From assembly GCA_965214875.1 (NCBI GenBank), contig OZ243980.1:2299058-2363057 (forward strand): a stretch of DNA of 64,000 nucleotides. Direction: 5' to 3'. Positions within the stretch are counted from its first letter, which is position 1. Each line of letters starts with the position of its first letter. Below are positions 17,870-58,600 of the stretch, one piece after another. The translations under genes were made by a program, and so were the position numbers. The notes beneath the pieces were generated by a model. That model saw only the letters and a program-made list of their open reading frames with translations. It had not been told where the DNA came from and did not search any database. The DNA is from Arenicellales bacterium (GTDB lineage: Bacteria; Pseudomonadota; Gammaproteobacteria; Arenicellales; JAJDZL01).

Positions 17870-17880
17870 GTTGGTTCAGC

Positions 17881-18249: not shown

Positions 18250-18279
18250 TGCAACAGTTCCTCCTGCCTGCAGGCGGCA

Positions 18280-23310: not shown

Positions 23311-23344
23311 GGTGCTATCGCCGGTCTGAAGCGTTCAAATGGGT

Positions 23345-24535
<1,191 letters not shown>

Positions 24536-24610
24536 AACTGCTACCTATGCTTTCTAGTTGGATTGACTGCTATTGCGCAACTCGTCGATTCAGATCGCGA
24601 AACGCCCGAA

Positions 24611-26707
24611 TCAGCTCGCAAGCTTCATGACTACGCCCGCTTCCTGGCTCGAAACCGGCATATACGCATCGAACTCCATCGAATACGTCGCACGGCCCTG
24701 CGTCAGCGATCGCAGCGACGACACATAGCCGAACATCTCTTTTAGCGGAACGCGCACTCGAACCACCTTGCCGCTAGCCACATCTTCCACGCCTTCGATT
24801 ATGCCGCGCCGCGATTGCAGATCGCCAGTGACAACACCCATGTACTCCTTGGGCGTTACGACCTCTACCGACATGTAGGGCTGCAACAGTTGCGGCCCGC
24901 CCCGCTGGCAACCATCTCGAAGCGCTTGCATCGCGACCGCGCGGAACGCGTACTCCGAAGAATCGACCTCATGATGCGAACCGTCAAGCAGCACTGCCTT
25001 GATATCAACCATCGGATAGCCGGCGATGATGCCGGTTCCAATGCCGTCTTCAAGCCCACGCCTGACGGCCGGGATGTATTCTTTCGGCACTGCGCCACCG
25101 ACAATTTCGTCCTCGAAGACGAAACCGCTGCCGCGCTCCAGCGGCTCGAAGCGCATCAAGACATGCGCATACTGTCCGCGACCGCCGGACTGCTTGACAT
25201 GCTTGCTTTCCTGCTCGACACGCTTGGTAATGGTTTCGCGATATGCAACCTGCGGCTGGCCGATGTTGGCATTAACATCGAACTCGCGACGCAAGCGGTC
25301 AATGATGATCTCCAAATGAAGCTCGCCCATCCCTGAAATAATCGTCTGGCCAGACTCTGAGTCGGTCTTGACCCGAAACGACGGATCCTCGGCCGAAAGC
25401 TTGTGCAAAGCGGCCGACAGGCGATCTTCGTCGATCCGGGTCTTGGGCTCGACTGCCTGCGACACGACAGGCTCTGGAAATTCCATGCGTTCGAGCATGA
25501 TTTCCTCGCCTTTAAGGCAAATGGTGTCGCCGGTCGTCACCGTCTTAAGACCGACGGCGCCAACAATATCGCCAGTCCGAACTTCCTTGATATCCTCGCG
25601 CGAATTGGCATGCATGTGCAGCAAACGCCCGATACGCTCTTTCTTGCCCTTGGAAACGTTGGCAACCATGTCTCCCGATTTCAGAACACCCGAATAAACT
25701 CTCAGAAAAACTAGCTGCCCCACAAACGGATCAGACATGATCTTGAACGCCAGCGCCGCAAATTTCTCCTCGTCGTCAGCTGCGCGAACCTCTGAATGGC
25801 CGGTTCGCTTGTCAATGCCTTCTACCGGCGGGACATCGGCGGGAGTCGGCAAATAGTCGATGACTCCATCAAGCAGCGTCTGTATGCCCTTGTTCTTGAA
25901 AGCAGAACCGCAAAACACTGGCACCATGGCATTGGCAAGCGTGAGTTTTCGCAGGCCCTTGCGAATCTGATTTTCATCAAGTGTGCCATGCTCAAGCCAT
26001 AGCTCGCCAAGCTCATCGTCTGCATCAGCCGCCACGCCGACAAGGTGCTCGCGCATCTGCTCTGCTCGCTCGCGAAGTTCTTCAGGCACTTCGCGGATAT
26101 CGAAATTTGCGCCCAGCGTGCGCTCATCCCAGTACCATGCCTTCATGGTGACGAGATCGACAACGCCGACAAAGTTCTCTTCACTGCCAATCGGCATCTG
26201 CACCGGCACTGTGTCGCAGCCCAGATATCGCGTGATCTGCCCCAGCACGCGCTCAAAGTCTGCGCCTGCGCGGTCCATCTTATTGATGAAAATAAGCCTT
26301 GGCACACCATAGCGGTCGGCCTGTCGCCATACCGTCTCAGTTTGAGGCTCGACACCGCCGACCGCGCACATGACCGCGACCGCGCCATCCAGCACACGCA
26401 GCGAGCGCTCGACCTCAATGGTGAAATCGACATGCCCCGGCGTGTCGATAATGTTGATGCGATGCTCGCTCAACGCTTCACGCGCACCGTTCCAGAAACA
26501 GGTGGTGGCTGCCGAGGTGATAGTGATGCCTCGCTCCTGCTCTTGCTCCATCCAGTCCATTACCGCATTGCCTTCATGCACTTCGCCCAGCTTGTGCGAG
26601 ATACCTGCGTAGAACAGTATCCGCTCCGTGGTCGTCGTCTTTCCAGCATCAATATGCGCCATGATGCCAATGTTGCGATAACGAGATAATGGCGTCTTTC
26701 TAGCCAT
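24611..26707 (-). CDS. fusA: Elongation factor G
   Basis: [23 protein letters not shown] and NKMDR motifs; 698 aa. Confidence 0.98.
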
Positions 26708-32213: not shown

Positions 32214-36442
<4,229 letters not shown>

Positions 36443-36587
36443 GAATGGTTGCACCGGCTTGATTTCAAGTCAGACGCGTACACGCAAATGCGGACTCTAC
36501 CCTGAGAGGATAGAGCTCGACCGAACAGTGCGGCAGAATGCTTGATAAAGTGATCAAATGGAGTCTTAAAGTCCGTGAAACTGAGAA

Positions 36588-39801: not shown

Positions 39802-39824
39802 GGGATCTTATCGCATATGGGCAA

Positions 39825-39901
<77 letters not shown>

Positions 39902-39927
39902 TCGCTAATGTGCAACCGCTGGACTAT

Positions 39928-41118
<1,191 letters not shown>

Positions 41119-41201
41119 TGCCCTGTCCCTCTGATCTTATCGATAGTGTGTTAAGTGATGCAAATTACAGGAATCGAATAACTGCCCCGATTGATGATGC
41201 C

Positions 41202-41728: not shown

Positions 41729-42021
41729 ACGATTCAGCAGCGGCAACTTCACGACCGCAACTTCAAGCGCACTGTTAGGCGAAACGAGAGCGAATTGTAC
41801 AATGAATCGAAAGTCGATGCCTTGATTTTTTCCATTATCTTGCGGCATCAAATATGCTTCGAACACTTCGCGGCCGAGTGAAACATGAGCAGAATCTCAA
41901 TTTGCGATTTTGCCAATTCCGCAGTTCTAACTTTGGAATCTTGATTGCAATCGCCCCTCAAGGCTGAGCTCTCAAGCCACTTGAATTTAATCCAAATCAA
42001 TCGGCATTAGGGTTCTACGCC

Positions 42022-43224
42022 TTAAGCAAGCAGCCGTATTTTGAATCGCTCGTCAAGCTCGATTAGATCAGGCTCTGTGCCGTTATGCTCTCTCATACCT
42101 TTGACGATTTTCCGGGGGATTCCCATTCCCATGTGTTCCAAGTAACGGTAGTCGCGCATAATGTCTTTTATAAGCTCGTTTCGTGAAGCGCGTGTTCCGA
42201 CTCGCATTCGATCCGGGGTAATCCCGTTTGGCAATCGGCCCGGCGAGACAACTTCTATGCGATCACTGTAAACCGTCAACTGAACATCCGTACTAGTGAG
42301 CATATAATCTCGGTGAATAAGAGCATTAACTATGCTCTCGCGGAGCGCATCGCTGGGATAGGCAGATCGCTCCACCCGTCTTCCGCCAATTTCTTCTACA
42401 TCCACACAGGTGTTGCGTTCAATGAAATTTAGGGCTTGCTCAACGAGTCCGTTGTCAACGATATCGCCACTTTGATTGAACAATGGGACCATAGGCCCGC
42501 GAAGCGTTGCGCGTTCCCGAGCGCCATAATCCTGCTCAGTTCCAGGATATGCGACAGCATCGATGCCCGCTTGAGGCAGGAACCGGTTTGGCGTACTGCC
42601 GAATAACACCATGCCCCCGACGCTTACACCTCCTTCGGTCATGATATCAGTGTTCACTAGAAGCGACTGCCACGCCGATACATTTTCTTCAGCAGGCACA
42701 TCCTGCTGTCGGATTTGGCCAAAGTAGTTTTGCAACCGTCTCTGATCAAGATGTTCAAAAGCGCTTCCCGATACTGGTTGCAGTTCGGTTCGCAAGGAAC
42801 CCCGCTGCTGGAATAGCCGCGCAAGTTCTTCAGTGCTCGCTTCTCGACTCTGCGAGCCAACACGAATCAGGTATTTGCTGCTATTGTTGTGCCAAAGCGA
42901 ATGCACACCATAACCACGGGGCACGTAAACAATAGCAATATCCTTGCCCCCTTCGATATTCTGCACTAATTCGAAGTGCGGAAGGATGGCGGGCCTTATT
43001 TTGTCTCGGCACACACTCATAACCCATTCTTCCAGACTTTTGCGCGTTAGGCCTGCAATTCTTCCATCATCCTCGACCCCTAAGAGAACTATGCCGCCTT
43101 GCAGGTTGGAAAATGCGACCAGTTCCTTAGCAAGATCTTGCGTACGCAAATCATCTCTTTTGAATTCCATTGCAGAATTTTCTCCGTTCTTTATGAATTC
43201 TCGCAATTCGCTATGCGTATACAT
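42022..43224 (-). CDS. Schlafen/AlbA_2-domain protein with a C-terminal HATPase_c_4-like domain (COG2865-type)
   Basis: The N-terminus ELREFIKNGENSAMEFKRD..LAKELVAFSNLQGGIVLLGVEDDG is typical of AlbA_2/Schlafen-type domains. The C-terminal RESIVNALIHRDY (aa 295-307, nt 42304-42342) plus GMGIPR is typical of the RecG-C-terminal-like ATPase fold. The ATG lies 3 nt after the upstream gene's stop. Confidence 0.75.
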   Translation of the reverse strand: MYTHSELREFIKNGENSAMEFKRDDLRTQDLAKELVAFSNLQGGIVLLGVEDDGRIAGLTRKSLEEWVMSVCRDKIRPAILPHFELVQNIEGGKDIAIVYVPRGYGVHSLWHNNSSKYLIRVGSQSREASTEELARLFQQRGSLRTELQPVSGSAFEHLDQRRLQNYFGQIRQQDVPAEENVSAWQSLLVNTDIMTEGGVSVGGMVLFGSTPNRFLPQAGIDAVAYPGTEQDYGARERATLRGPMVPLFNQSGDIVDNGLVEQALNFIERNTCVDVEEIGGRRVERSAYPSDALRESIVNALIHRDYMLTSTDVQLTVYSDRIEVVSPGRLPNGITPDRMRVGTRASRNELIKDIMRDYRYLEHMGMGIPRKIVKGMREHNGTEPDLIELDERFKIRLLA

Positions 43225-43227
43225 GCT

Positions 43228-45924
43228 TCAGAATCCATATTTTGAACGACGCATCTCGAACGCAGCCTTGCCGCCTTCGAGAATTTCCTCGACTAGTTCG
43301 CGTACAGAAATGGAGTCAATCGAGGCCATATGCTCTCGAGCAATTCGCGCTTTCCCTTCTATGACTTCGCCCGCCGAAGTGAGGCCGAGAATAAGTTCGG
43401 CATCGCCGAGAACCGGAATATTCGCATTGTGCGTAGAAAACACGAACTGACGATTGCGCTTTTCCTGCCGCATAATCGGCACCACGCCCTCCGTAATGAA
43501 GCGGTTATCGAGATCATCTTCTGGCTGATCGATGACTAGCGGCACTGTCGATTCAAGCAGTAGAAGCAGCAATACGGCTGTTGCCTTTTGCCCGGTCGAG
43601 AGAGCTTGCAGCCTACGCCAGCTAGCAGGTGCTCCATCGTGTGCCGTATTTAGCTCGATATCGGTCGTTGCAGGCAATTCAAGCTCTTCTATGCGCATGA
43701 AGAAATCTAAATCGGCACCGGCGATTCGTTCTGCCGCACCAGGTGGCAGGTTGTAGTGTGCAATTAGAGATTCCCTGCCTTCCCGGCACCGTTGCGCGAG
43801 TTCTGCCAAAGACAGATTCGCATGCTTTCGCAAGCGTTCCAGCGCAGGAGAAAGATTACCGCCCAACTCGCGCAAGAGTTCTTCGAGAGGGTCGCGATTT
43901 CCAGCCATCGCAACTGCAACCCGCACACGCTCTCCAAGTTTCTTGCTCACCCTCTTTGCTGCGTTATCGAGTCGCCTGTATTCAGTGGACTTGATATCTT
44001 CCCACTCAGCCAAGAAGTTTCGGCGCTCGGCTTCGTGCGCATCCAGTTCCTGATTTAAACTTTGCATCCGGTCAGTTAGCGGACGCAACTCTTCGATCTG
44101 TTGGCGAAGTTGAATGAACTCTGCACCGTCAATATTAGACTTTTGAAGTTCGCGCAGGAGCTTTTCATAGTTTTGCTCGATTGTTTTCTTCCGCTCGCTC
44201 CAATGCAACTTAGTGTTGGCAATTGCTTCATCCGCTTGGGTAAAGATTGTGCCCAACTGCTCGTACAGAGCAACCAAGTTCTCGCTAAGTGTCGTTAGAA
44301 TTCCTTCAAGATTAGATAGAACATCAGCATTGGGCAACGTTTGAAGAGCTTTATAGGAAACGAAGGCTGTATCCACAGGCAATCCTTCTTTGAGTTCGTT
44401 ATGGATAGCGCGGTAGTAATCAAGCCGTTCATCCAGACTGGCAAATAGTCGCTCCTCGCGCAAGAGCCAGCTTTTTTCCTTTAGTCGCTCTTCAATGCCA
44501 GCCTGCTGAAATCTTCTATGCGTCTCCTCGAGACCGGGTAACGCCGCAAGCTGCTCATCAAGAATTCTCAACTGCCGGCGCACATCAACAATGCGAATCC
44601 GTGAGCGTTCCAATCCCTGGCTTACCCGCAACTTCCGTACTGAAAGAGCCGGATCCGATTCCGTGAACCGCCTCAGCAGAAGCGTTAGTTTTTCCGGGCT
44701 CTTTGTAAGTTCGGAGATCTCGTGCTGCCCATAAATTTCAACGCCAGGCATCACATCTTGAGGCGACAAGTCCAAGACTTTCCTCGCCTCATCCCTTACC
44801 ACTGGCGGATTCGGCACAGTCCTCTCAATCGTGTAATAACGCTCTGACGGTTTGTATGATCGTACCCTCAAAGAAATTTTCGTGCCGGGTCGCAAAACAT
44901 GGCGAATCACTCCTTCATGGCTCCGTTTGACATCCTCGCCTAGTGGGGTGAGATCAAGAGCATAGCGTATGCTTTCAATCATCGTCGACTTGCCGGTACC
45001 TCGTCCCCCTATAAGCACATTCAGGTTTTCGTTGAAATGTACAGCCGTGTCGCTAAGAAACCCACCTTCCCAAGTAATTGCTAATAACTCGGCATGGCTT
45101 TCGGGCCGCTCATCGCTATGCAGACGGACTCGTGACCCTGGGTCGAGAAATGCTTGTCGAAAAGCCTCTATCGATACTTTGGACATCTTGATAAAACATG
45201 AGGCACTTTGCTTTTTCAGATCTTCTGGATCATTCACGTCCGAAGCATTAAGAATCGCTACGGGGTGGTCGCGCTTGTGCTGGGCATCCTTATTCTCAAG
45301 AATCTGCCTAATGCCATCGGGCGCATCGCCGACAGGTCCTGGCAACGCACAAGCAATAAGTGCCGGATCTCTCCAGACATTGATTCGTGATTGCCCCGAA
45401 AGTTTTCTCAATAGCCCGCCTTCGGAAGCAACATGAGCGGCGATGCAAACTGCGCCCCAAGTCTTTGAGGATTCGAGCAGCTCGAGTGAATCCAATTTGC
45501 CTGTTGGGGGCGGTTGGTCGGCATCGAGGATTCCGCACTCGCCGATGAAACGTTCCAAAGATTCTTCCTTATCGGGGTCAAACAGGCATAGAAAGTGAAC
45601 GCCATCTTTCGCAACGGCTTCGAAACCGCTGAATGCGTGGATTTTCGCCTTGCGCGCGGCTCGCACAAGGCCTGCCGAATACGCTACACGGTAGTGATCC
45701 GTCACGGCAATGACTTCAATTTCATTTTCGAGACAAGCGTCGACTATCGCAGAATTGTATTCATCCTCCGACTTGAAGGGTGTTTTCTTGTTGTGAGTTC
45801 CAAGATAGGCGAATGGATTAACCTGCAAAGCGCAACGACGGAACCGCGCACCATTTGGCAGATCCAGCGTAGCCTGCATCTGGTCAGGAAGTGCGCGCGC
45901 AGAGTTCATGGATGCCGCATTCAT
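43228..45924 (-). CDS. PHP-phosphoesterase / SMC-Rad50-like ABC ATPase fusion protein (TrlF/Ppl-like architecture)
   Basis: PHP-like N-domain with VIAVTDHYRV (nt 45685-45714), GFEAV..GVHFLCLF and IAAHV. Walker A GGRGTGKST (aa 306-314, nt 44983-45009) is followed by a long charged helical region (aa ~430-660). The signature LSTGQK plus Walker B LVIDQPEDDLD (aa 775-806, nt 43507-43602) and STHN complete the ATPase. Confidence 0.75.
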   Translation of the reverse strand: MNAASMNSARALPDQMQATLDLPNGARFRRCALQVNPFAYLGTHNKKTPFKSEDEYNSAIVDACLENEIEVIAVTDHYRVAYSAGLVRAARKAKIHAFSGFEAVAKDGVHFLCLFDPDKEESLERFIGECGILDADQPPPTGKLDSLELLESSKTWGAVCIAAHVASEGGLLRKLSGQSRINVWRDPALIACALPGPVGDAPDGIRQILENKDAQHKRDHPVAILNASDVNDPEDLKKQSASCFIKMSKVSIEAFRQAFLDPGSRVRLHSDERPESHAELLAITWEGGFLSDTAVHFNENLNVLIGGRGTGKSTMIESIRYALDLTPLGEDVKRSHEGVIRHVLRPGTKISLRVRSYKPSERYYTIERTVPNPPVVRDEARKVLDLSPQDVMPGVEIYGQHEISELTKSPEKLTLLLRRFTESDPALSVRKLRVSQGLERSRIRIVDVRRQLRILDEQLAALPGLEETHRRFQQAGIEERLKEKSWLLREERLFASLDERLDYYRAIHNELKEGLPVDTAFVSYKALQTLPNADVLSNLEGILTTLSENLVALYEQLGTIFTQADEAIANTKLHWSERKKTIEQNYEKLLRELQKSNIDGAEFIQLRQQIEELRPLTDRMQSLNQELDAHEAERRNFLAEWEDIKSTEYRRLDNAAKRVSKKLGERVRVAVAMAGNRDPLEELLRELGGNLSPALERLRKHANLSLAELAQRCREGRESLIAHYNLPPGAAERIAGADLDFFMRIEELELPATTDIELNTAHDGAPASWRRLQALSTGQKATAVLLLLLLESTVPLVIDQPEDDLDNRFITEGVVPIMRQEKRNRQFVFSTHNANIPVLGDAELILGLTSAGEVIEGKARIAREHMASIDSISVRELVEEILEGGKAAFEMRRSKYGF

Positions 45925-46003
45925 CTCTGTTTTTCTGTCAACTCCGACATCTTGAACCTCGTTTCTGCCTTAATAGACTTCCTTGTCCGGCGATGTATTT
46001 GTA

Positions 46004-46135
46004 TTAGTCGACTGCATCTCGCACGAACCAAGCCAAGGCAACTGTCTTCTCCATAGCGAGTTATTGCAGAACCTCATAAGCGTCCGGTGAAAAGCTAATC
46101 AGCACCCGCACCGACGGCATCTGTTCAGATTTCAT
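46004..46135 (-). pseudogene. Ribbon-helix-helix (CopG-like) gene remnant with an internal stop
   Basis: Hand translation gives MKSEQMPSVRVLISFSPDAYEVLQ, a TAA at 46061-46063, then LAMEKTVALAWFVRDAVD and a second stop. The RVxISFSPxxYExL..LA....VSLAWVVRDA pattern matches RHH regulators as I recall them. It lies 80 nt upstream of the 898-aa gene. Confidence 0.5.
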
Positions 46136-46585
46136 TTTCTGCCTCCCTTTCCATTCGCTTATCACTTCGAGATTCATAATCGGCAAATCACTTCACCATA
46201 CCACACCATGCTGGCACACAAAATCGTCCCACATTCCCATGAAAGGTAACGGGCTGTAGATGCGATGACGATGCAAAGTTTCTTTTGATGTGCCGAGCAG
46301 GTGCACTAGCGACCAGCATCGTTCCGCAAATTGGCCGAGATGGCTGCCTTAGTCAATTTGCGGATAAAGCGAGACGCGTTGCGATTAACCACAAGCTCTT
46401 AGCAATCCAAATCACGGAGACAACACTCCGTTCAGGGGCAAAACAAGAATATCATCCTGAATGGATGGTGAACGACCACGACCATGGCGCTTGTAGCCGC
46501 ATACACTCAAAATCAACTTGCGGCATGCGAAAAACTTCTCTGCGGAACGTAGGATTCGATTTGCTTCAACTTGAATCATCGAGGA

Positions 46586-47097
46586 CTATCTCCAATTTTC
46601 TGCAGTCAAGGGCAACTCGTCAAGTTCCGCCCGAGCTTCTCGCCATGCTGGAAAATGATCAGTGAGCAATGAGATAAAACGATCGATATGAGTAGGCTCT
46701 TGCAAGTAGAGCATCTCATGCACAACAACCTATTCGATCAAATCCTCAGGCTTTTTCACAAGTTCAGCGTTCAACCTGATATGCCCTACCTCGTGATTGC
46801 AACTTCCCCATTTAGTCTTCATTCACTGAAGGAAATAAGCTTTAACCTTCGCATCGAGTTTCGGTTCCCACTTTCTGATCAGGATAGGGATGAACTTATC
46901 CAAGAGAGACTTGCGCCATTCATGGATAATTTTCGCTCGTTCAGCATAGTCACTGCCTGTGGACGCACAGTCAACGTGAACCTTCTATGGTCAGCTGTTA
47001 CGTATGGCTTGGCATCACGTTCTATAGCGGTTAGCAAATGTAGGCGGTCCCAAAGAACTTGCCAGTATCTTCGCCACTGTCCGCCAAACTGTGCCAT
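46586..47097 (-). pseudogene. DUF45/YgjP-type (M48-like) metal-dependent hydrolase pseudogene
   Basis: Hand translation gives ..AKIIHEWRKSLLDKFIPILIRKWEPKLDAKVKAYFLQ, then TGA, MKTKWGSCNHEVGHIRLNAELVKKPEDLIE, TAG, and VVVHEMLYLQEPTHIDRFISLLTDHFPAWREARAELDEL. There are two in-frame stops and one frameshift relative to the N-terminal piece (ORF 46879-47097). The HExxH motif reads HEMLY. Confidence 0.7.
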
Positions 47098-48025: not shown

Positions 48026-48808
48026 TCAATGGAACGTCACTGTCGCTTGCATGCCAGGAAATAGCAACAACTCGCGCTCGGTGAATTTCACAAATACGGG
48101 AAAATTGCCGGCTTGATCAGGCTTAAGGGAACCAAAGGCGATCTTGCCATCATAGTTCCGACCTTCAACTGCAATCGCCGCATCGCCGTCTCCCTGAAGC
48201 GAAGTCCGCAAACTCAATGGCACCTCCAATCGAACGATGAACTCGCCCGCAGACACCAAAGTCATCAAGCGCTGCGTCTCATCCATCATCCGCACCGCCA
48301 TCCCCTCTTCGACATTCCGATTTTCAACCATCGCATCAAACGGGGCTCTCAACTTCGTCTGGTCAACCGCATGCTGCGCCGCAATCAGCCTGCCCTGCGC
48401 GACTACCAACTCGGCACGCGCACGCTTCAAATTGTCGACCGCCTTATCGTAGGCTGTCAACGACAGCGAACCCTGTTCAAACAGCGCCTCCTGGCGTTCG
48501 AGCTCTTCTTCCAATTCTTTTACCGCAATCGATGCCACCTCGACATTGCTGGCACTTATCCTTTCATCAGCATCTTGCCTAGTGGAGTCGAGCTCTACAA
48601 GAACTGTTCCCGACATGACAACATCGCCTACTTCAGCACGAACAGCTTCCACTCTCCCGTCCGTTAGCGCGACCAAATCCACTCGCACTCTGAAATCAAC
48701 GACACCTTGAAAATCTTCCGCATATAGATCATCCCCCATAAACGAATTTCCCAAGCAAATCGCTATCGCCAGCACAACCGACTTCAACTTGACTGATTCA
48801 GTTCTCAT
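48026..48808 (-). CDS. Periplasmic adaptor (HlyD/MFP family), short form
   Basis: Signal/anchor segment, a lipoyl-like DGRVEAVRAEVGDVVMSGTVLVELD, a coiled-coil hairpin region and KLRAPFDAMV. At 260 aa it is shorter than typical RND/ABC adaptors. Confidence 0.8.
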   Translation of the reverse strand: MRTESVKLKSVVLAIAICLGNSFMGDDLYAEDFQGVVDFRVRVDLVALTDGRVEAVRAEVGDVVMSGTVLVELDSTRQDADERISASNVEVASIAVKELEEELERQEALFEQGSLSLTAYDKAVDNLKRARAELVVAQGRLIAAQHAVDQTKLRAPFDAMVENRNVEEGMAVRMMDETQRLMTLVSAGEFIVRLEVPLSLRTSLQGDGDAAIAVEGRNYDGKIAFGSLKPDQAGNFPVFVKFTERELLLFPGMQATVTFH

Positions 48809-50132
48809 CCGAAACCACCTCTTTTCCCATCAACATGTCCAGTCGCAGCCACGTCATAACGACTTGATACTTTGCCTTGATCGACCGGTACTGGGCATTG
48901 AGCAGTTGCGCCTGCGCATCGCCCAAGTCTGAACGAACTTCAAGTTCATACAGCAGTCTGCTTCTATCCATGTAATGATCGCGATATCTGGAATGCACAT
49001 CGGCCGCGTTGCTCTCGACTCGAAGCGTTCGCAGCTGATGCCATAAGGCAAATGCTTGCTCGCGCAAACGCAGTTCAACCGCCTTGGCGCGCGCTTGCGC
49101 CTTTTCGATTTCGATTCTTCCGAGCCTTTGCGTTCGGCGCTTTTGCGCACCAGCATGGACCGGAATCTGAAACTGAACCGCTACCGATGCCTCATTTCGA
49201 CTGCCGGTTTTCTGAGCCCAGTCTTCGCCCTCAATAACACCATCCACCCTCAGCTTGTACTTCGCATCTTCGCTATCCGCATGGTGTTCCGCCTGACTGA
49301 CTTGAATCTTGGCACTTTCAAGCTCGATGTTTGATCTCAAAACAAGCTCGATCAAATCGTCAAATTCGGGCAATTCCCGATTCGCGATGAAATCTATATC
49401 AGGCGCCGCCAAATCGCGCGGAACATAGTTGTCCAATCCCATCGCGGATGCAAGCCGACGCCTTGCCGCCTGCGGCTCCAAGCCGGCTTGCTGGCGGACC
49501 ACGAAAGCATCCATATACTTCGATTGTGCGGCAAGTACTTCGACTTCGGCGGGATGGGAGAATTCATCAAAGCTCTGCTGAAGCCTGTTGTAGTGCAAAA
49601 ATTCAATGGTCATGAGCTCATTTTTGATTGCATAATCTAAATCAGCCAGTAAAACGCTAAAAAAGCGCTCCGCAATGAGGACTCTTTGCTGCTGAACCTG
49701 CAATCGCAATCGACGCTCTGCGTAATCGACCCCCGACATGCCAGCCAAATTCCTGCTCTGCCTTTGCCCAGAATCGAACAGGTTCTGCGTCAATCGCAAG
49801 CGCGACACGCTATCGTCAATGGAGCTTGAAGCAGTGTGGTCGGCCCTGTCAGCGCGCTCACCAATGACGTGCAAGTCGATCAACGGGCTGTACGAACTTG
49901 ATGCCGAGTCGACTTCGGCCTGAGCGCTCTGGAGGTCGAGCTCTGCGAGCTTCAACACCGGATTGGAGGGTGTGGCGTAACTGAGCGCTTCTGAAAGAGT
50001 TAGAGGCTCGGAAAGTGATTCGATCGCTACAGCAAAACTCGCCAAGCCAGCCAATAGCCAGCCGGCGACAATGGCGGCGATCAGCCGGATGCGGTATGTC
50101 GCAGCACTGCTTAATACCGCACTCGCTAGCAT
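48798..50132 (-). CDS. TolC-family outer membrane factor
   Basis: At 444 aa it has a signal-like N-terminus, LTLSEALSYATPSNPVLKLAELDLQSAQAEV, and the two-repeat helical/beta pattern typical of OMF proteins. Confidence 0.8.
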   Translation of the reverse strand: MLASAVLSSAATYRIRLIAAIVAGWLLAGLASFAVAIESLSEPLTLSEALSYATPSNPVLKLAELDLQSAQAEVDSASSSYSPLIDLHVIGERADRADHTASSSIDDSVSRLRLTQNLFDSGQRQSRNLAGMSGVDYAERRLRLQVQQQRVLIAERFFSVLLADLDYAIKNELMTIEFLHYNRLQQSFDEFSHPAEVEVLAAQSKYMDAFVVRQQAGLEPQAARRRLASAMGLDNYVPRDLAAPDIDFIANRELPEFDDLIELVLRSNIELESAKIQVSQAEHHADSEDAKYKLRVDGVIEGEDWAQKTGSRNEASVAVQFQIPVHAGAQKRRTQRLGRIEIEKAQARAKAVELRLREQAFALWHQLRTLRVESNAADVHSRYRDHYMDRSRLLYELEVRSDLGDAQAQLLNAQYRSIKAKYQVVMTWLRLDMLMGKEVVSDEN

Positions 50133-50710: not shown

Positions 50711-52465
50711 TCAGGCGCCAACCCCGGGATTCGAGCCGTTCAAAACCAATCTAGGCTCATTAACGCGCGGCACTTCAATCGTGCCTGCATTCCTCAAGTA
50801 GTCCGCTACCACGTCCCAAACCGGAGGCCCCGGCGAAATCTCGCCGACAGTAGCCCATCCACTGACCAGGTAGATTTTGCTCGCTTCGATCAAGTCGCCA
50901 TTGTCGAGGCGAATGTCAGAAATTCGGTTGCCGAAATCCTTAAGCGGATCAATCGCATAGGTAAAGCCTCCGACCCGAACCATATCGCCGCCTTGTTGGA
51001 AAAACGGATCCGGGTTGAACGCATTGTCCGCGACATCCTCCAGTATCAGCTTGATCGTTTCGCCGGTCATTTCCCGCACATAGGTTTCAGGATAGGTCAT
51101 CGCGGTTTGACTAAGCACATCTTCCATCGTGACGGTGTGCTTCGGCAACACTGACGTACCCCAGCGAAAGCCCGGAGAAAGCGCAATTTCAGAGCCGCCA
51201 TGCTCAATCAAGGCATCACAAATCACTTGATCAAACGAGCCGCTGAAATTGCCTCGGCGATACAGCAGCGATTCAGACACCGCAAGCTGCTCTGCGAGTC
51301 GATCAGCATAAGGCTCGCGCGTGCGCGCAATCAGTTCATCCATGTCCCGGTCGGGCTCAATCAGGTTGCTGAACACCGGCACCAATCTATAGCGCGCCTC
51401 TTTAACGCCGCTGCTGCCGATATCCAAATCAAGCACGCCAAGAAACTTGCCGCTGGAACCAGCATTGGTCACCAAAGTGCTTCCGCCGTCGTTTTCGACC
51501 CGCACCGGTTGCGGCACCGCATCGTGGGTATGTCCGCCTAGAATCGCATCCAGTCCTGATACCTGGCTTGCGAGTTTCTTGTCGACATCCATGCCGTTGT
51601 GAGAGAGCAGCACGACGGCATCCGGACGATCCTCAGCGCGAATCTTGTCAATCAGATCCTGCAGCTCGCCCGACCGAATCCCAAACGTCCAATCCGGCAC
51701 GTTGCGCCTCGGATTGGCGATCGGGGTATACGGAAACGCTTGCCCGATGATGGCAATGTCGAACCCGCCCAGAGTGCGCATGGCGTACGGAGGAAACGCA
51801 TGCCCCGTAAATTCATCATGAACCGGCTTTTCGTCGAACAGCGCATCTTCGGTCAAAAAAATGTTTTGAGCAACAAAATCGCCGTTCGAAGCTTCGATGT
51901 TGCGGCGAAATTCTTCTGGCGTATAGGTAAACTCCCAATGGCCAGTGAACACATCGATGCCGAGAAGATTGCTTGCCTCGACCATATCCATGCCCCGCGT
52001 CCACAGCGATGTGCCGCTACCCTGCCAGGTGTCGCCGCCGTCAAGCAACAACGTACGGTCGCGACCATAGCTTTGCCGAAGTCTGTCGGCTAATGACTTG
52101 AGGTGCGCATAGCCGCCAAGCTTGCCGTACTTTTCTGCCAGCTCAGCGAAATCAAGGTAGGTGAATGCGTAGGCGGATGGCGAGCCGGCTTCAATGCCAT
52201 AATAGTCGAAAAACGATTTTCCGACCAGATGCGGAGGCGCTCCCCAAGCATCGCCGATGCCTATATTGATTCGCGGTTCGCGGTAGTAGACCGGATTGAG
52301 CTGGGCGTGAGAGTCGGTGATATGAATAAGCCGAACATTGCCAAATCCTTCAAAGTCGTAGAGTGAATCGCTCGCGCTTGCCGAAGCAGATGCATACGGC
52401 ATGGCAATGCCGGATGCAAACGCAGCCGACAAAGTTTGAAGAAATTCGCGGCGATCAATATTCAA
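50711..52465 (-). CDS. soxB: Thiosulfohydrolase SoxB
   Basis: Tat motif RREFLQ, a HITDSHAQ metallophosphoesterase motif and a 5'-nucleotidase-like C-terminus; 584 aa. Confidence 0.93.
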   Translation of the reverse strand: MNIDRREFLQTLSAAFASGIAMPYASASASASDSLYDFEGFGNVRLIHITDSHAQLNPVYYREPRINIGIGDAWGAPPHLVGKSFFDYYGIEAGSPSAYAFTYLDFAELAEKYGKLGGYAHLKSLADRLRQSYGRDRTLLLDGGDTWQGSGTSLWTRGMDMVEASNLLGIDVFTGHWEFTYTPEEFRRNIEASNGDFVAQNIFLTEDALFDEKPVHDEFTGHAFPPYAMRTLGGFDIAIIGQAFPYTPIANPRRNVPDWTFGIRSGELQDLIDKIRAEDRPDAVVLLSHNGMDVDKKLASQVSGLDAILGGHTHDAVPQPVRVENDGGSTLVTNAGSSGKFLGVLDLDIGSSGVKEARYRLVPVFSNLIEPDRDMDELIARTREPYADRLAEQLAVSESLLYRRGNFSGSFDQVICDALIEHGGSEIALSPGFRWGTSVLPKHTVTMEDVLSQTAMTYPETYVREMTGETIKLILEDVADNAFNPDPFFQQGGDMVRVGGFTYAIDPLKDFGNRISDIRLDNGDLIEASKIYLVSGWATVGEISPGPPVWDVVADYLRNAGTIEVPRVNEPRLVLNGSNPGVGA

Positions 52466-52568
52466 TTTCGACCTGCATGCGAGAAACCAGAATGCAGATC
52501 AGCCCGACCTTGCAAGATCGCGGTGGGTGGCTAATAAATTCACCTACCGCAATACCGAGATTGCTTCG

Positions 52569-52880
52569 CTACCGAAGAACTCGACTTTCCCACAGTGTAG
52601 CTTCGCGGTCGGCTTGAACGATCGCCTGATCGCTTTGTAGCTGCGCTTCGGCAACCAGAGCCGTCGCCTTTCCTAGATCTCCTTCCTCAGCTGCTTTTTG
52701 CGCATTTTTCAGAATCTTGGCTGTATCGCGCCACTCGTGACTGAGTTCGCCAGCCTGCTTTCGCGTTTCGTTCGCTTTGGCTAGCGCGGTGTTGAACGCT
52801 TCCACATCCGCATAAGCGGCCGAGCCCGCCGCAGCGAGCGCGGCCACCAAAAAAACACTTACAAGATTTCCTGTCTTCAT
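52569..52880 (-). CDS. Small periplasmic helical protein between soxA and soxB (possible SoxK/SoxAX-binding protein)
   Basis: The start MKTGNLVSVFLVAALAAAGSAAYA is a signal peptide, leaving a ~80-aa helical mature part. The SoxK assignment rests only on synteny. Confidence 0.4.
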   Translation of the reverse strand: MKTGNLVSVFLVAALAAAGSAAYADVEAFNTALAKANETRKQAGELSHEWRDTAKILKNAQKAAEEGDLGKATALVAEAQLQSDQAIVQADREATLWESRVLR

Positions 52881-52893
52881 CGTCTTCCTCCCA

Positions 52894-53742
52894 TCAGCGC
52901 CGCACGCCCGGACCATTGAATTCCAGACCATTGCTCATGTAGGTCAAGAAGTACTCCAGATTGCGGTACTCTTCGCTTTGCGCGGCAAAAGGCTTGGCCC
53001 GCACCTGCGAATTGCACCCGCCAATTCTGCGATGCAACGTTCCGATCTCGCCCCACTTGAGCCGATAGACAGGGAAATGGCTTGGGTGCCCCAGCGCAGG
53101 ACTCAGCATTTCGGTCCGGATCGCTCCGCCTGAACCGCCGACGTGGCAATCCGAACAGGCGAAATTCAATTGACCGCGCTTGGTATAGTAAAATTGCTTG
53201 CCCATTTCGTAGGCTGCCATGGCCCGCGGGTCATCCGGCACGACGACATTGATTACCTTGCCGCGAGTCGTATACGCCATGTAGGCTGAAATCGCGGCGA
53301 TATCGCCTTTCTTGTACTTCAGCGGCTTTTCGCCATTGGCTTCGCGGCATTGATTGATCGCAAGTTCTGCGGTGATCACCATCCCTTGCTCAACATCGAA
53401 ATATGGGTACATGTGCCGAACGCCAATACCTCCGTTTTCGAAGCAATCGGCATAAGACTTGCCATTGGCGAACGGCGTTTCAAACAGCTCCTGGCCTTTG
53501 TCAACCGCGATTTCATAAGGCGGAAACTCTTCAAGATCGTTCCATTGATCTCGCGCATTGGTATCGATAGAATAGATTCCGTTGATGAAGTCATCTTTCG
53601 GCGTATCCGGAAACTTCGTCAAGTAGTAGTTCTGAAACGCTGCTCGATCGACCTCGGGATCGGCAAACAGAGCAGCCGATGCCGCAGCCGCTACGCCGGC
53701 CGCGACAACATACGACAACAGTTTTTTCATAGCAATTTGCAC
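52894..53742 (-). CDS. soxA: Cytochrome c SoxA (single CxxCH)
   Basis: One heme motif CSDCH and a conserved downstream IGGCNSQVRAKP (distal Cys ligand region). Only one CxxCH is present, so it is the monoheme type. An alternative start, MKKLLS, lies at 53730. Confidence 0.9.
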   Translation of the reverse strand: MQIAMKKLLSYVVAAGVAAAASAALFADPEVDRAAFQNYYLTKFPDTPKDDFINGIYSIDTNARDQWNDLEEFPPYEIAVDKGQELFETPFANGKSYADCFENGGIGVRHMYPYFDVEQGMVITAELAINQCREANGEKPLKYKKGDIAAISAYMAYTTRGKVINVVVPDDPRAMAAYEMGKQFYYTKRGQLNFACSDCHVGGSGGAIRTEMLSPALGHPSHFPVYRLKWGEIGTLHRRIGGCNSQVRAKPFAAQSEEYRNLEYFLTYMSNGLEFNGPGVRR

Positions 53743-53774
53743 TCCTCAGTTTTATTCTCTGGGCTAGGCGCGCC

Positions 53775-54083
53775 TTAAGCGATGGTGTATTCCTTATCTC
53801 CAGATCCGCCCATGTTGTCGTGCCAATGGATCGCAACCGTGTCCCCGCTTTGCGGCCCGCGGAGCTTGAACGACAGATAGGGATTCTTTGAAATGGCCGG
53901 GCCCCAGTGGGCGCGAATCATTTCCTGCCCCTTCCAGTTGCAGGTCACCGCTTCAATGTAGTGAGCGGGAATCGGCTCGCCGGTCTTTTGATCCTTGCGC
54001 TGGCCGGTTTCCATCGGATGCTTGATCAGCACCTTGACTTCAGCGTCTTCGCCGAGCATCCGGACTTTTGCCTTGATGGACAT
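53775..54083 (-). CDS. soxZ: Sulfur carrier complex subunit SoxZ
   Basis: 102 aa with KHPMETGQRKD and NPYLSF motifs. Confidence 0.92.
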   Translation of the reverse strand: MSIKAKVRMLGEDAEVKVLIKHPMETGQRKDQKTGEPIPAHYIEAVTCNWKGQEMIRAHWGPAISKNPYLSFKLRGPQSGDTVAIHWHDNMGGSGDKEYTIA

Positions 54084-54107
54084 ATCAAAACCTCCTTTCG
54101 TCTTGCC

Positions 54108-54581
54108 TTAGCCGCCGCAGCCGCCAATGGTAACTTTGACTTCACTTGCACCGCGGTAGACGCTGCCATTGGATTTGACGAGGGCAATGACATCGGATGT
54201 CTTGCCCATCTTGATCCGCATCGACACCTCGGGCACTACTCCTGGCTGCAAGTCGAACGACGCAACCATCGGAGCAGGATTATTCGGAACCAGAACGGCG
54301 ATTGATTCGACATTGTCGATATTCGCCGTCACCTTGATCGGAACAACGGCTCCGTTTTCGGCAATTTCCGGACCTTTGACAACAATGTTGGCGGCCGCAT
54401 CGGCAACGCTTTGATCGCCGAACAAGGCATCTAGCGCAGCATCCAGCTCTTCAGCGTCAAACGCTGCCTGGGGGCGCGCCGCAAAAGCTGCGGTGGAAAA
54501 GCCCCACGATGCCGCAAGACCGACCAGACTGGCTGCGGCAGCACCTTTGAGCACTACCCGTCTTTGCTGATTTACTTTCAT
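54108..54581 (-). CDS. soxY: Sulfur carrier protein SoxY
   Basis: Tat signal QQRRVVLKGAAA and the diagnostic C-terminus VKVTIGGCGG. The ORF-track start at 54824 is an upstream extension. Confidence 0.93.
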   Translation of the reverse strand: MKVNQQRRVVLKGAAAASLVGLAASWGFSTAAFAARPQAAFDAEELDAALDALFGDQSVADAAANIVVKGPEIAENGAVVPIKVTANIDNVESIAVLVPNNPAPMVASFDLQPGVVPEVSMRIKMGKTSDVIALVKSNGSVYRGASEVKVTIGGCGG

Positions 54582-54601
54582 CGTACTTTCCCTCTTTCGT
54601 C

Positions 54602-54979
54602 TTATAGTGTGTGCACGTATGCCGTGATCTTGTCGATTTCCTCGTCGGTCAGAATCCCATGACGGCCAAACGGGGGCATCATCGTATTGGGGTTGGCAGC
54701 TGTCGCATCGTAGATTCGCGCTCGAAGCTTCGCTATGTCGGGAAATCGCTGCTGCATGAAAATTAGCGGCGGTCCATGCGTTCCGGGCATCAAGCCGTCC
54801 TCCATGATGTGGCACGAAAGGCAATTGCCTTTTCGACGATCAAATGCAATCTTTTTCCCTTCGGCAATGATGTCCGCCGCCGCGTCGGCATGGCCGACCT
54901 GCGGCTGGACCGCCAAAAATCCGAAAACGACCGCCAGCGTCGCCAGACCAAACGCTAAAGTTCCAATCAGTTTCTTCAT
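54602..54979 (-). CDS. soxX: Cytochrome c SoxX
   Basis: Signal peptide, a CLSCH heme motif and MPPFG. The ORF-track start at 55111 is an extension. Confidence 0.9.
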   Translation of the reverse strand: MKKLIGTLAFGLATLAVVFGFLAVQPQVGHADAAADIIAEGKKIAFDRRKGNCLSCHIMEDGLMPGTHGPPLIFMQQRFPDIAKLRARIYDATAANPNTMMPPFGRHGILTDEEIDKITAYVHTL

Positions 54980-55019
54980 TTTCCTTTTTCCTTTGACTGC
55001 GGTTATCGTTTTTTGTTCC

Positions 55020-55052
55020 AAACCGCATCGCCTAACCGTTAACATGCGGTTT
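55020..55052. promoter_or_regulatory. Perfect 9-bp inverted repeat in the soxX/arsR divergent intergenic region (candidate operator)
   Basis: AAACCGCAT (55020-55028), a 15-nt spacer, then ATGCGGTTT (55044-55052). A second, weaker IR, TGTGC-n9-GCACA, lies at 55092-55110. Confidence 0.4.
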
Positions 55053-55185
55053 GCAGTTTTGATGTCGATTATACTAAATGCCTTATCTGTGTGTGCAAAT
55101 TTTAGGCACAATTTTCTGTTCGGTTGCTGAGCTATCCCAAATCAAGCCTAGTTATACAGTTAAATCATTGAATGCAAATAAACCA

Positions 55186-55640: not shown

Positions 55641-58600
55641 GTGATTGATTTTCCACCAATCGCGATTGTCGGCACGGCTTGCCGCTTTCCGGGCGATGCC
55701 GACTCGCCGCAACAGCTGTGGCAAAACCTGACAGAAGGCAAGGATTCTATCGGTCCGGTTCCTGACGATCGCTGGCCTACAGGCTTTTTCGACTTATCGG
55801 GACCGGAAACAACAGCATTCGCCAAAGTTGGAGGCTTTGTAAACGGAATATTCGACTTCGATCCGGTATTTTTCGGCATATCCCCGAGGGAAGCGGACAG
55901 CATTGATCCGCAGCAGCGAATGCTGCTTGAGCTTGCGCACCGGTCTATGGAAGATGCCTGCGTCGACAATCGCTCATTAAGCGAATGCCGCACCGGCGTA
56001 TTCGTCGGCATCATCAACCACGACTACGCCCGGCTGCTTCTCTCCAATACCATGCACATCAGCGCTCACACCGGCTTGGGCCGTTCGGGCAGCATCGCCG
56101 CGAATCGGATTTCGTACGTTTTCAACCTCACAGGACCAAGCATCGCGATCGATACGGCGTGCTCGTCATCGCTTGTCGCGGTGGATGCCGCCTGCAGATC
56201 GCTGAATCATGACGAATGCGATGTCGCGCTTGCTGGCGGGGTCAATGCTGTTTTGCTTCCGGAGAGCTATCTTGAATTCGGACGAGCGCAAATGCTTTCC
56301 GTCTCCGGTCGCTGTCGCGCTTTCGATGCGAAAGCCGACGGTTTCGTGCGGGCAGAAGGCGGCGGCCTGATCCTTTTGAAGCGCTTATCCGATGCGCTGG
56401 CAGACAGGGACCGCATCCGCGCAATCATCGCGGCAACGGCGGTCAATCAGGATGGGCGAACCGCAGGCATCATGTCTCCCAGCATCGATGCGCAAGTTTG
56501 CATGATGCGAAAAGCTTTACAGCGAGCCGATCTTCAGCCATCAGCGATTGGGTATGTCGAAGCGCACGGCACCGGCACGCAGTCAGGCGACACCGCCGAA
56601 GCCGAATCGATCGGAACGGCATACGGACGAAGCGCACGGCACCGAACGCTGCCGGTCGGTTCTGTCAAGACGAATATCGGGCATACCGAAAGCGCTGCCG
56701 GCATTGCCGGCCTGATCAAGGCGCAACTGTCAATTGAGCACAATGCCATTGTGCCGAATCTTCACTTCGGCACGCCAAATCCGGCGATCGATTTCAATGG
56801 GCTGGGCTTGCGCGTTCCGAGTAAAGTGGAGTTGCGGGATGGCGGCACCGACAGGCTGCGAGCAGCTGCGGTCAATTCATTCGGTTTCGGGGGCACCAAT
56901 GCGCACGTCATTTTGCGTCAAGCGCCTGCGCCGCAAATCAACCGCAAAAACAAAAGCGCCGCCTACGTGCTGCCGGTGGCAGCCCCGTCAGAGGAATTGC
57001 TCGAAAACCGAATATCCTCTATCAGCGAGCTTGCGCAAAGCAGTACGCCAATTCAAAACATCTACAGTTCAGCAGCGCGACAGCATGGCGGACGCTACAG
57101 AAAGACAGTGCTGATCCAGGAAGAGGCCGCTGACCACATAGATAGCCGCGTAGATTTTTCAAATACTCCAGCCGCACTGGAAGAACTGGGCGAGCCGCCT
57201 CATCTTTGCTTTGTCTTTAGCGGGATCGGAAGAAACTGGGGCAGCGCCGGCAGACAGCTCTATTCCTGCGAACCGCAGTTTAAGTCAGCCATCGACGATT
57301 GCGATGCGCTTTTCCGACAGCAATTCGACAACTCCATCATTCGCGGTGTGCTCGAACGCGGCAAGTCCCCCGAATCTGTAATCAGGGATCTGCACCCATT
57401 GCTGTTCGCGATACAGATCGGACTTTATCAGCTGTGGCATTCTTGGCACATTGTGCCTCAGTCGGTGCTCGGGCACAGCATCGGCGAAGCCGCGGCAGCA
57501 TGGGCATCCGGTGCGCTTACAATGCCCGAAGCGGTGCAAATCATCGGCGAGCGCTACCATGCATTCGAGCCGTTGGAGCATCAAGGTAAAATGCTCGCTG
57601 CCGCACTGGATGAGCAAACTGCGGCAGACATGGCGCGCGCATTCTCAGGCGAACTGCATCTTGCATCCGTCAACAGCCCAGCCTCGATTACTTTCTCGGG
57701 TTCGAAACAGGCTATTGAAGCGGTTGGCAAACAATTGCATGCAGCCGGAACGCGCCACCGGATGCTGGATATTAATGTGCCATTTCACTGCCCCTTGATC
57801 GAGTCGGTGCAGGGCGATGCATTGCAAGCTATCGACCGAAGCGGGGAACGGCAACAGGACATCCGATGGTTTTCCTCATTCGGCAAGCATATTGCCGGGG
57901 ATATCGTGCCGACAGGCGAGTTTTGGTGGCAAAACTTCAGCGCACCTGCCAATTTTCAACACGCTTTCGAACAGACGCACAGCGCCGGGTGCCGGACGTT
58001 TGTGGAAATCAGCCCCATACCCGCTCTGCTCACGGCGATTCATGAGAATCTCGATGCTTTGAAGTTCAAGGCAACGGTGCTGCCTTCCCTAATGCCTCAT
58101 GCTTGCGAGCGAACTTCAATGCTTCGTTCTGCCGGCAGACTGTTCGAGCTTGGCTCGGAGCCAGCTTGGCCGCGCCTGTGCCCTTTGTCAACACCCTGCA
58201 ACCTTGCGCCACTGCATTTTGAACGCCGCACCTATGCGAAGCAAGCGCCGCAACTCAACCATCGCAAGCAAAATGCCTTTACTTCCAAAATAGCCGCCAT
58301 TTATGATGAAAGCAGCGGATGCCGCAGCTATCGTTTCGATATCGAAAAATCCCATTGGCTCAAATCACATACCCTGCACGGGAAAATCGTTTTTCCTGCG
58401 GCCGGGTTCATCGCTGTCATTCTGGACACGCTAAATGAGCGGTGGCTTCAAGCGACAATGCAAGTCAGCAAAATCGGGTTCCATCGGCTGCTTGAAGTCG
58501 CAGAAAGCAAGTCGCACACTCAGGTGCGTGTGCTGATTTGCGAAAACTCATTGGATAGCGGACTCGAGTTGTCGATCGCCGATGCGGACGAGCCTGAATT

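Follow-up and report, generated by a model that had tools for sequence, protein, structure and literature searches.

What does an 898-aa PHP-ATPase gain from a Schlafen-like protein encoded three nucleotides behind it, and do the two act as one system? The question is raised by two neighbouring minus-strand genes, trlF and trlG, in a stretch of 64,000 nucleotides from an Arenicellales bacterium (contig OZ243980.1 of assembly GCA_965214875.1, forward-strand positions 2,299,058 to 2,363,057), which we call the window. An earlier note, made from the letters of this DNA, had taken the pair for a candidate two-gene defence module. We lean towards a related reading, in which trlFG is a mobile two-gene cassette and most likely an abortive-infection anti-phage module, where the sensor would be Ppl-like and the effector a tRNase of Schlafen type. 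The features at issue are these.

43228..45924, minus strand: trlF, an 898-aa TrlF-family protein with an ATG start (open reading frame (ORF) list, NCBIfam NF045780, PADLOC Ppl match)
42022..43224, minus strand: trlG, a 400-aa stand-alone Schlafen-GHKL protein ('Schlatpase') with an ATG start (PF04326 and PF13749)
43222..43230, minus strand: trlF stop, 3-nt spacer and trlG start (TGA agc ATG)

Judged by its sequence, the pair belongs to the TrlF family and is an operon of TRL type, and hence already named. The earlier note knew of no described system that pairs a PHP-ATPase with a COG2865/Schlafen-like protein, but exactly this arrangement occurs in the putative operon trlR-trlF-trlG of Photorhabdus laumondii DJC/TT01 (Hapeshi et al. 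2020, Front Microbiol 11:548800, PMC7554251). There trlR encodes a 79-aa putative regulator, trlF is annotated as 'histidinol phosphatase', and trlG, with AlbA_2 at aa 14-128 and HATPase_c_4, is mis-annotated as recG. The TRL operon has a patchy strain distribution, is induced by a temperature up-shift and limits how P. laumondii grows at 36 °C. Among more than 20 independent mutants that tolerate this temperature, the lesions (missense, nonsense or insertion sequence (IS)) were in trlG and none was in trlF; deletion of the operon gave the same tolerance and did no harm, and the whole operon in trans restored restriction (PMC7554251). Our literature search turned up no later TRL paper. The window shares with the TRL operon the order of trlF followed by an AlbA_2 plus HATPase_c_4 gene on the same strand. 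Upstream of trlF, where Photorhabdus has the small putative regulator gene trlR, the window has a dead RHH gene. The window protein differs in belonging to a distinct 898-aa clade with Q-x-N for the PHP motif H-x-H, and the published Photorhabdus phenotype concerns temperature only, with neither a molecular mechanism nor a phage link. What is new here is the conserved pairing, the co-inheritance of the two genes, their embedding in plasmid defence operons, the conservation of the TrlG motifs and the invariant Q-x-N.

Pairing, inheritance and spread of trlF and trlG

The earlier description of two minus-strand ORFs only 3 nt apart is borne out by the ORF list and by the junction itself, which reads ...tat gga ttc TGA agc ATG tat... 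This tight junction is not chance, because spacer lengths are kept among related loci with clean gene ends. A scan of one genome per species gave 80 related loci with 51-78 % TrlF identity; of those with clean ends, 51 have a spacer of 3 nt, 17 one of 2 nt and 2 one of 8 nt, which puts 68 of 70 at 2-3 nt. A TrlG homologue (48-76 % identity) lies immediately 3' of trlF in 78 of the 80 loci, and with the 2-3 nt spacer an AlbA_2 gene as downstream neighbour at this frequency is far from chance co-occurrence. One of the two exceptions is a contig that ends inside trlF; the other (L061) is genuinely without TrlG, so that a single unpaired trlF stands among 79 informative loci. Both genes are intact in 68 of the 80. 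The two proteins have also diverged together and to an equal degree, with a Mantel r of 0.85 between their pairwise identities (0 of 999 permutations as high) and mean identities of 70 % for TrlF and 71 % for TrlG. What surrounds the pair, by contrast, varies: the three nearest ORFs on each side (n=447) fall into 401 clusters, 368 of them singletons. The flanks are not conserved, and therefore a conserved core-genome DNA-repair context, which the earlier note had named as something that would speak against a defence role, is ruled out. Its treatment of trlF and trlG as one unit stands on this obligate pairing, on co-inheritance and on variable flanks, and trlFG is a self-contained cassette that moves horizontally.

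The 80 loci span more than ten phyla. They come from Alpha- and Gammaproteobacteria, Acidobacteriota, Binatia, Latescibacterota, Rhodothermales, Nitrospinota, Thermodesulfobacteriota, Chloroflexota, Bacillota, Verrucomicrobiota, Acidimicrobiales and one spirochaete, and the genomes that bear them include many marine or sponge-associated metagenome-assembled genomes (MAGs) and also MAGs from soil. At E <=1e-10 the protein database holds more than 4000 TrlF relatives, in a search limited to 8000 candidates; of the best 120, nearly all have a length of exactly 898 aa, and their identity is 72-78 %. TrlF-family genes are likewise found on 1132 PLSDB plasmids, all of them below 60 % identity to the window TrlF, and these genes are of two kinds. 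Solo genes include those of E. coli pMAR2 and Listeria pLM6179 as well as true Ppl. In the paired kind, TrlF is followed by an 'RNA-binding domain-containing protein' that is in fact TrlG, full length and 29-41 % identical to the window TrlG; such pairs occur on plasmids of Pseudomonas, Klebsiella, Yersinia, Vibrio and Citrobacter, and in the distant pairs of the first three genera the genes overlap by 19-22 nt. Phages have solo TrlF-like genes too: one is in a Yersinia phage related to P2, another next to the integrase gene of a small Vibrio prophage. On plasmids of Pseudomonas, Listeria and Yersinia, TrlF is flanked by genes for small serine recombinases.

Plasmid copies of the pair can sit inside defence operons. 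On Vibrio parahaemolyticus pLH80-1, trlF and trlG lie within BREX-1, between pglX on one side and pglZ and brxL on the other. Two IncC plasmids carry them within type I restriction-modification (R-M) operons, between hsdM hsdS and hsdR SprT in Citrobacter and between hsdR and hsdS AAA hsdM in Klebsiella. When the plasmid Hsd, Pgl and Brx proteins were searched by tblastn against the 80 chromosomal loci, only 2 gave matches; therefore embedding in BREX or type I R-M is a trait of the plasmid clades, not of the window's clade. Neighbours of the chromosomal loci with defence or mobility functions include integrases, TIR, HEPN_Swt1, DUF499, type I and type II methyltransferases, short-pAgo TIR-APAZ partners and transposases, and in a sister contig of the window a DISARM DrmD gene adjoins trlG. 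A defence role fits this context, as the earlier note had supposed, and the existing tools applied to both genes (PADLOC, NCBIfam) do not assign the pair to any characterised defence system.

Domains and active-site residues of the two proteins

The domain calls made earlier on both ORFs agree with Pfam and NCBIfam, and the TrlF label given there is right. TrlF passes the NCBIfam model NF045780 ('TrlF family AAA-like ATPase') with 500.5 bits against a cutoff of 350 (E 1.6e-149) and aligns to it end to end, residues 24-897 on model positions 1-944 of 944; NCBI PGAP gives the same name to homologues that are 77 % identical to it. The Spaf_1101 model of NCBIfam gives 201 bits against a cutoff of 475. 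In Pfam, AAA_21 and AAA_23 score above cutoff, SMC_N-type ATPase segments are also matched, and PHP is matched weakly, with 15.5 bits (E 0.022) where the cutoff is 26.4. All the motifs quoted in the earlier note are present: in TrlF, LQVN (33-36), VIAVTDHYRV (71-80), GFEAV (100-104), GVHFLCLF (108-115), IAAHV (161-165), GGRGTGKST (306-314), LSTGQK (775-780), LVIDQPEDDLD (796-806) and STHN (830-833), and in TrlG, ENSAMEFKRD (15-24), GGIVLLGVEDDG (43-54) and RESIVNALIHRDY (295-307). Its numbering of the PHP residues as D75/H76 was wrong, and they are D76/H77.

TrlF begins with the PHP-like domain (about aa 25-270), in which Q34-V-N36 occupies the H-x-H position. A split ABC/SMC-type head follows, with Walker A at 306-314, a Q-loop at G399-Q-H-E, the signature at 775-780, DQPEDDLD at 799-806 and H832. 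Between the half-heads lies a helical insert of ~250 aa (about 420-670) that is 34 % charged and predicted to be all-helical; a search of residues 420-670 for Cys found none, and hence no Rad50-type zinc hook. In an alignment of TrlF, Ppl and plasmid TrlFs the motifs of the ATPase head are identical (SxGQ, DQPEDDLD, H-N/S-A of the H-loop, GDAE and EGG..AF). The Q that follows the Walker B aspartate is also present in Ppl and the plasmid TrlFs and is therefore a family trait, not decay.

The best PADLOC match of TrlF is Ppl (E 1.8e-33). Ppl is a single-gene anti-phage protein, reported by Rousset et al. in 2022. In the accounts of Xu et al. (Mol Cell 2026;86:180) given in PMC12904381 and PMC13434339, Ppl is a 3'-5' single-stranded DNA exonuclease that is inhibited by nucleoside triphosphates (NTPs) and senses 3'-OH overhangs, which activate it. 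The two proteins have the same layout, in which a PHP domain precedes an ABC-type ATPase that carries a helical insert, and a similar length (891 aa in Ppl, 898 aa in TrlF), and they share the motifs of the ATPase head and five PHP ligand positions. However, their identity is only about 27 % across part of the length, the window TrlF scores 152.5 bits against a cutoff of 1000 for NCBIfam NF042955, and PADLOC model PDLC02208 gives it 113.7 bits where true Ppl reaches 1826. Ppl has H-x-H and D-x-H where TrlF has Q-V-N and D-V-N, and Ppl acts alone whereas TrlF of the window's clade is constantly followed by TrlG. We thus rejected Ppl as a name for the window protein, on score, on the missing H-x-H motif and on the presence of a second gene. 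A sequence search of the PDB with TrlF gave generic SMC/Rad50 P-loop matches only, and no Ppl structure turned up.

Other ATPase-nuclease systems match TrlF in PADLOC only in part, at the P-loop and signature (LmuB 2.8e-14, AriA 1.9e-9, GajA 7e-6, PtuA 4e-5). In PARIS, the ATPase AriA sequesters AriB, a Toprim tRNase, until a trigger releases it to cut tRNA. PARIS resembles TrlFG in combining an ABC/SMC-like coiled-coil ATPase with a separate nuclease, and the likeness is one of functional analogy only: the window pair includes no AriB, Toprim or DUF4435 protein, AriA is without a PHP domain, and its match to TrlF is confined to generic ATPase motifs. Membership in PARIS, Lamassu, Gabija or Septu was rejected on these partial ATPase matches and on the partner, which is a Schlafen protein and not AriB, LmuA, GajB or PtuB.

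The main departure of the window TrlF from its relatives lies in the PHP site. Positions H77, E102, H110, H164 and D229 are common to Ppl and all TrlF groups, and the groups differ in the first and last ligand motifs.

Ppl: first motif H-x-H, last motif D-x-H
'Group B' TrlFs (Klebsiella, Pseudomonas, Yersinia; solo E. coli, Listeria): first motif H-x-H, last motif D-x-K
'Group A' TrlFs, the window's (also Vibrio, Citrobacter): first motif Q-V-N, last motif D-V-N

Q34 and N36 are invariant in the window's clade, and D229-V-N231 stands in place of D-x-H. PHP catalysis in this clade is doubtful because Q-x-N replaces H-x-H and D-V-N replaces D-x-H, and with it the 'nuclease in cis' that the earlier note had attributed to the 898-aa protein. 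To judge from these substitutions, the PHP domain of group A probably has little nuclease activity or none, and is probably not the main nuclease of the pair; it may have been retained as a pocket that binds a ligand or DNA ends, or as a docking module. Group B TrlFs occur both solo and with TrlG, and the group A examples that we inspected are all paired.

TrlG combines SLFN_AlbA_2 (PF04326, aa 15-129, 7.3e-19) with HATPase_c_4 (PF13749, aa 312-398, 3.5e-21). Its Schlafen motif Ex4(E/D)xK reads E15-NSAM-E20-F-K22, and the E, the E/D and the K are each found in 73 of 73 clade members; a Schlafen-box-like VAFSN follows at 36-40. GHKL-type residues E296, N300, HRDY 304-307, SPG 327-329 and G366-x-G368 are at least 97 % conserved in the clade, and S17 is also conserved (73/73 or at least 97 % of the clade). 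E296 and N300 are equivalent to E314 and N318 of RzAgo, the Glu/Asn pair that binds Mg-ATP. The PDB sequence search with TrlG returned only 3lmm, a COG2865 protein that has not been characterised. In Photorhabdus, the suppressor positions S16, V35/A36 and R126 correspond to S17, V36/A37 and R127 of the window TrlG, all conserved, in a mapping that covers the N-terminal domain only and takes plasmid TrlGs as its numbering proxy.

Prokaryotic Schlafens are phage-activated tRNases that depend on Ex4(E/D)xK, and the 'HisKinase' fusion is their commonest architecture, at 34 % (Perez Taboada et al., Nat Microbiol 2026, PMC13056530). The combination of Slfn and GHKL has been called the 'Schlatpase' supradomain and is found in 58.6 % of prokaryotic Schlafen proteins (SLFN-pAgo preprint 10.64898/2026.05.29.728809). 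With these proteins TrlG shares both Pfam domains, the Ex4(E/D)xK motif, the Schlafen box and the GHKL Glu/Asn pair. It differs in having no fused sensor (Ig-like, DUF262, pAgo, NACHT or HTH); its constant partner is a separate Ppl-like protein, an association that is absent from both Schlafen papers.

A possible sensor-effector mechanism and its rivals

How might the pair work? In the reading that we favour, TrlF would sense and control, with DNA 3' ends and/or NTP status as its cues by analogy with the reports on Ppl, and TrlG oligomerisation would create an active Ex4(E/D)xK nuclease whose cleavage of tRNA would bring about growth arrest. The 2-3 nt spacing could keep TrlF and TrlG stoichiometric, and the two proteins would form a physical complex. 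Suppressors were absent from trlF though it is a 2.2-fold larger target than trlG, and therefore TrlF is not needed for TrlG toxicity. By analogy with AriA and AriB of PARIS, TrlF may restrain or license TrlG rather than activate it. The upstream RHH gene, where it occurs, in fewer than half of the loci, may be a transcriptional autorepressor. A fuller version of this idea, which we hold tentatively, is that TrlFG is a widespread two-component immune system in which a PHP-degenerate, Ppl-like sensor of DNA ends and nucleotide state gates a Schlafen-GHKL tRNase. The Photorhabdus growth restriction would then be heat-triggered autoimmunity, and the passage from solo Ppl/TrlF to TrlFG would have moved the effector role to the Schlafen protein.

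Several observations weigh against these proposals. The only recorded phenotype of such an operon is the temperature one, and the text of PMC7554251 makes no mention of phage, nucleases or abortive infection; in the searchable literature we found no phage or plasmid challenge of any TrlFG pair, nor any report of a Schlafen partner for a protein of Ppl or TrlF type. Slfn-HisKinase fusions, which may or may not have been of TrlG type or partnered by TrlF, gave no protection in E. coli (PMC13056530). Many of the chromosomal neighbours are plain housekeeping genes, and the evidence from context is qualitative. Three canonical PHP His ligands are replaced in the window's clade. In five related loci trlF is disrupted and trlG intact, which speaks against TrlF as an indispensable restraint, with the caveat that single frameshifts in long-read MAGs may be sequencing errors; the harmless deletion of the whole Photorhabdus operon speaks against a strict restraint as well. 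The AlphaFold2 models, built from alignments limited to relatives of 72-78 % identity, lend no structural support, with a mean predicted local distance difference test score (pLDDT) of 47.8 for TrlG (31 sequences) and 50.8 for TrlF (13 sequences). Finally, the dead regulator in the window and the loss of trlG in a sister strain suggest that the window copy may be on its way out.

Might the two be independent defence genes that travel together and share a promoter, with no coupling between the proteins? We regard this as unlikely. Solo TrlF-family genes do exist on E. coli pMAR2 and Listeria pLM6179 and in Yersinia and Vibrio phages, Ppl is a single-gene system, most Schlatpases are without a TrlF partner, and loci with one partner broken are found in both directions. 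Against this, a 2-3 nt spacer or an ORF overlap is kept across clades at about 25-40 % identity, the proteins co-diverge (r 0.85) at equal rates, TrlF without TrlG is seen in only one of the 79 informative loci, and a degenerate PHP site fits an effector role that has shifted to TrlG. The same toxicity of TrlG could instead serve addiction, with TrlG as a toxin, TrlF and/or the RHH protein as its neutraliser, and the maintenance of a plasmid or island, not phage defence, as the outcome. The family is abundant on conjugative plasmids, often near partition, toxin-antitoxin (TA) and recombinase genes; RHH autorepressors are typical of TA operons; and Photorhabdus TrlG arrests growth, with no trlF loss-of-function mutants recovered (PMC7554251). 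We nevertheless think an addiction module quite unlikely, for no known antitoxin resembles an 898-aa ATPase, the pair can lie within BREX and R-M operons, the Photorhabdus operon can be deleted wholly without harm, loci with a broken trlF and an intact trlG exist, and both protein families have validated anti-phage relatives.

The original interpretation of the TRL operon, an adaptive regulator of growth under stress or temperature that has nothing to do with foreign DNA, has in its favour the one experimental phenotype, induction on up-shift and restriction of P. laumondii growth at 36 °C (PMC7554251). It sits poorly with 60-78 % identity across more than ten phyla, flanks that are not conserved and a patchy strain distribution, all marks of a mobile accessory cassette, and with homologues in MAGs from the sea, from sponges and from soil, settings in which 36 °C plays no part. 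The BREX, R-M and DISARM context also counts against it, and autoimmunity of a defence system would readily account for growth arrest under heat; we consider such a regulator decidedly improbable. A DNA-repair machine, with TrlF as an SbcCD/Rad50-like end-processing ATPase carrying its nuclease in cis and a COG2865 transcription factor beside it, appears very improbable indeed. Weak Rad50, SMC, RecN and RecF matches at the Walker A and signature regions and the PGAP Gene Ontology term 'double-strand break repair' on some TrlF proteins point that way. These matches are, however, confined to the P-loop and signature segments. The best Rad50 model gives 32.6 bits against a cutoff of 1000, the insert has neither Cys nor a zinc hook, and there is no Mre11/SbcD partner nearby, and for these reasons we rejected the Rad50/SbcC-like identity that the earlier note had given the 898-aa protein. 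A repair role is likewise at odds with a neighbourhood that is not conserved, a patchy distribution and a degenerate PHP metal site.

The families of both components are individually validated in defence, and the anti-phage role of the pair, as drawn from their sequences, is putative. The window pair itself is nothing out of the ordinary for a family that already has a name, and the defence islet around it is small and partly decayed. If TrlFG proved to be a defence system, the catalogue of such systems would gain a common cassette, with thousands of homologues in more than ten phyla, from a family that is abundant on clinical IncC and IncF plasmids and also occurs within BREX and R-M operons. 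The commonest prokaryotic Schlafen architecture would gain a defined partner and a trigger pathway, and two mechanisms of 2026, the sensing of DNA ends and NTP levels by Ppl and the cleavage of tRNA by Schlafens, would be joined. Confirmation would also offer a molecular explanation of why many Photorhabdus strains fail to grow at human body temperature.

The islet around the pair

In the window, trlFG lies between a Sox/efflux/PKS region and the tRNA-Thr/Tyr/Gly/Thr-tufB-secE-nusG-rplKAJL-rpoBC cluster. Two remnants stand upstream of trlF.

45938..46135, minus strand: RHH (CopG-like) regulator pseudogene (tblastn 59 % identity, E 1e-16, two stops)
46586-46822, minus strand: YgjP/SprT-like metallopeptidase remnant in two ORF fragments, C-terminal part (PF01863)

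The RHH gene is a pseudogene created by substitutions. Its in-frame TAA codons lie at 46061-46063 and 46004-46006, and it reads …YEVLQ-stop-LAMEKTVALAWFVRDAVD-stop-YKY…; an intact RHH gene (56-66 aa) precedes trlF in 34 of the 80 related loci, ending 35 nt before it, and an intact homologue matches RHH_5 and RHH_1. A YgjP/SprT gene accompanies the type I R-M system of the Citrobacter plasmid, after hsdR, and the fragments in the window are probably the remnant of a lost R-M system. The earlier view of a decaying accessory patch is confirmed. Scanned for promoters, terminators and inverted repeats, the DNA upstream of trlF yielded none above the level of chance. At 46323-46364, ~190 nt upstream of the dead RHH gene, is a perfect 11-nt inverted repeat (TCCGCAAATTG / CAATTTGCGGA), its arms 20 nt apart.

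A sister contig (L088; ENA ERZ25072143 contig_114) is 99.76 % identical to the window across 13.9 kb. Its TrlF differs at two residues, A569V and K700R, and its trlG has a +1 frameshift, a change of Y233 to TAG and P290L, Y233 and P290 being invariant in the clade. The sister contig has an extra 5.07 kb between trlG and the tRNAs, where the window has 161 unrelated bases (12686-18983 of the sister compared with 41832-43224 of the window). This insert encodes a full-length DISARM DrmD SNF2 helicase (PADLOC E 2.9e-280), the next gene after trlG, and a 477-aa protein for which a search for family matches gave none. The site is a small defence islet in flux. That trlFG is its only intact unit and hence under selection, as the earlier note had argued, does not follow, with the regulator dead and the trlG of the sister frameshifted and stopped at Y233. 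The window copies themselves look healthy when set against their relatives: at columns with a consensus of at least 90 %, TrlG departs at 8 of 196 and TrlF at 14 of 416, about the 75th percentile of the family.

Some care is needed with other broken genes in this DNA. In rpoB (32214-36454, minus strand) two frames overlap, with a shift at a short A run (caaaag) at about 33100-33140, and here an assembly error, a homopolymer indel, is likelier than a genuine pseudogene; therefore pseudogenes in the window that rest on a frameshift alone call for caution. Two ORFs that we considered as IS elements, of 445 aa (39817-41154, plus strand) and 468 aa (23339-24745, plus strand), are antisense artefacts inside the tuf copies, which encode 396 aa each on the minus strand at 23345-24535 (tufA) and 39928-41118 (tufB). 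Integration at a tRNA 3' end was rejected as a model of how the islet arose, the islet being on the 5' side of the tRNA-Thr/Tyr/Gly/Thr-tufB cluster. Further along the window are an efflux pair (OEP/HlyD, 48026-50132), a SoxYZA/cytochrome c sulfur-oxidation cluster (50711-55130) and, at 55641-63017 on the plus strand, a 2458-aa single-module polyketide synthase (PKS; KS-AT-DH-MT...). Together with relatives in sponge and marine MAGs, the PKS, Sox and efflux genes suggest a sulfur-oxidising bacterium that is host-associated or marine.

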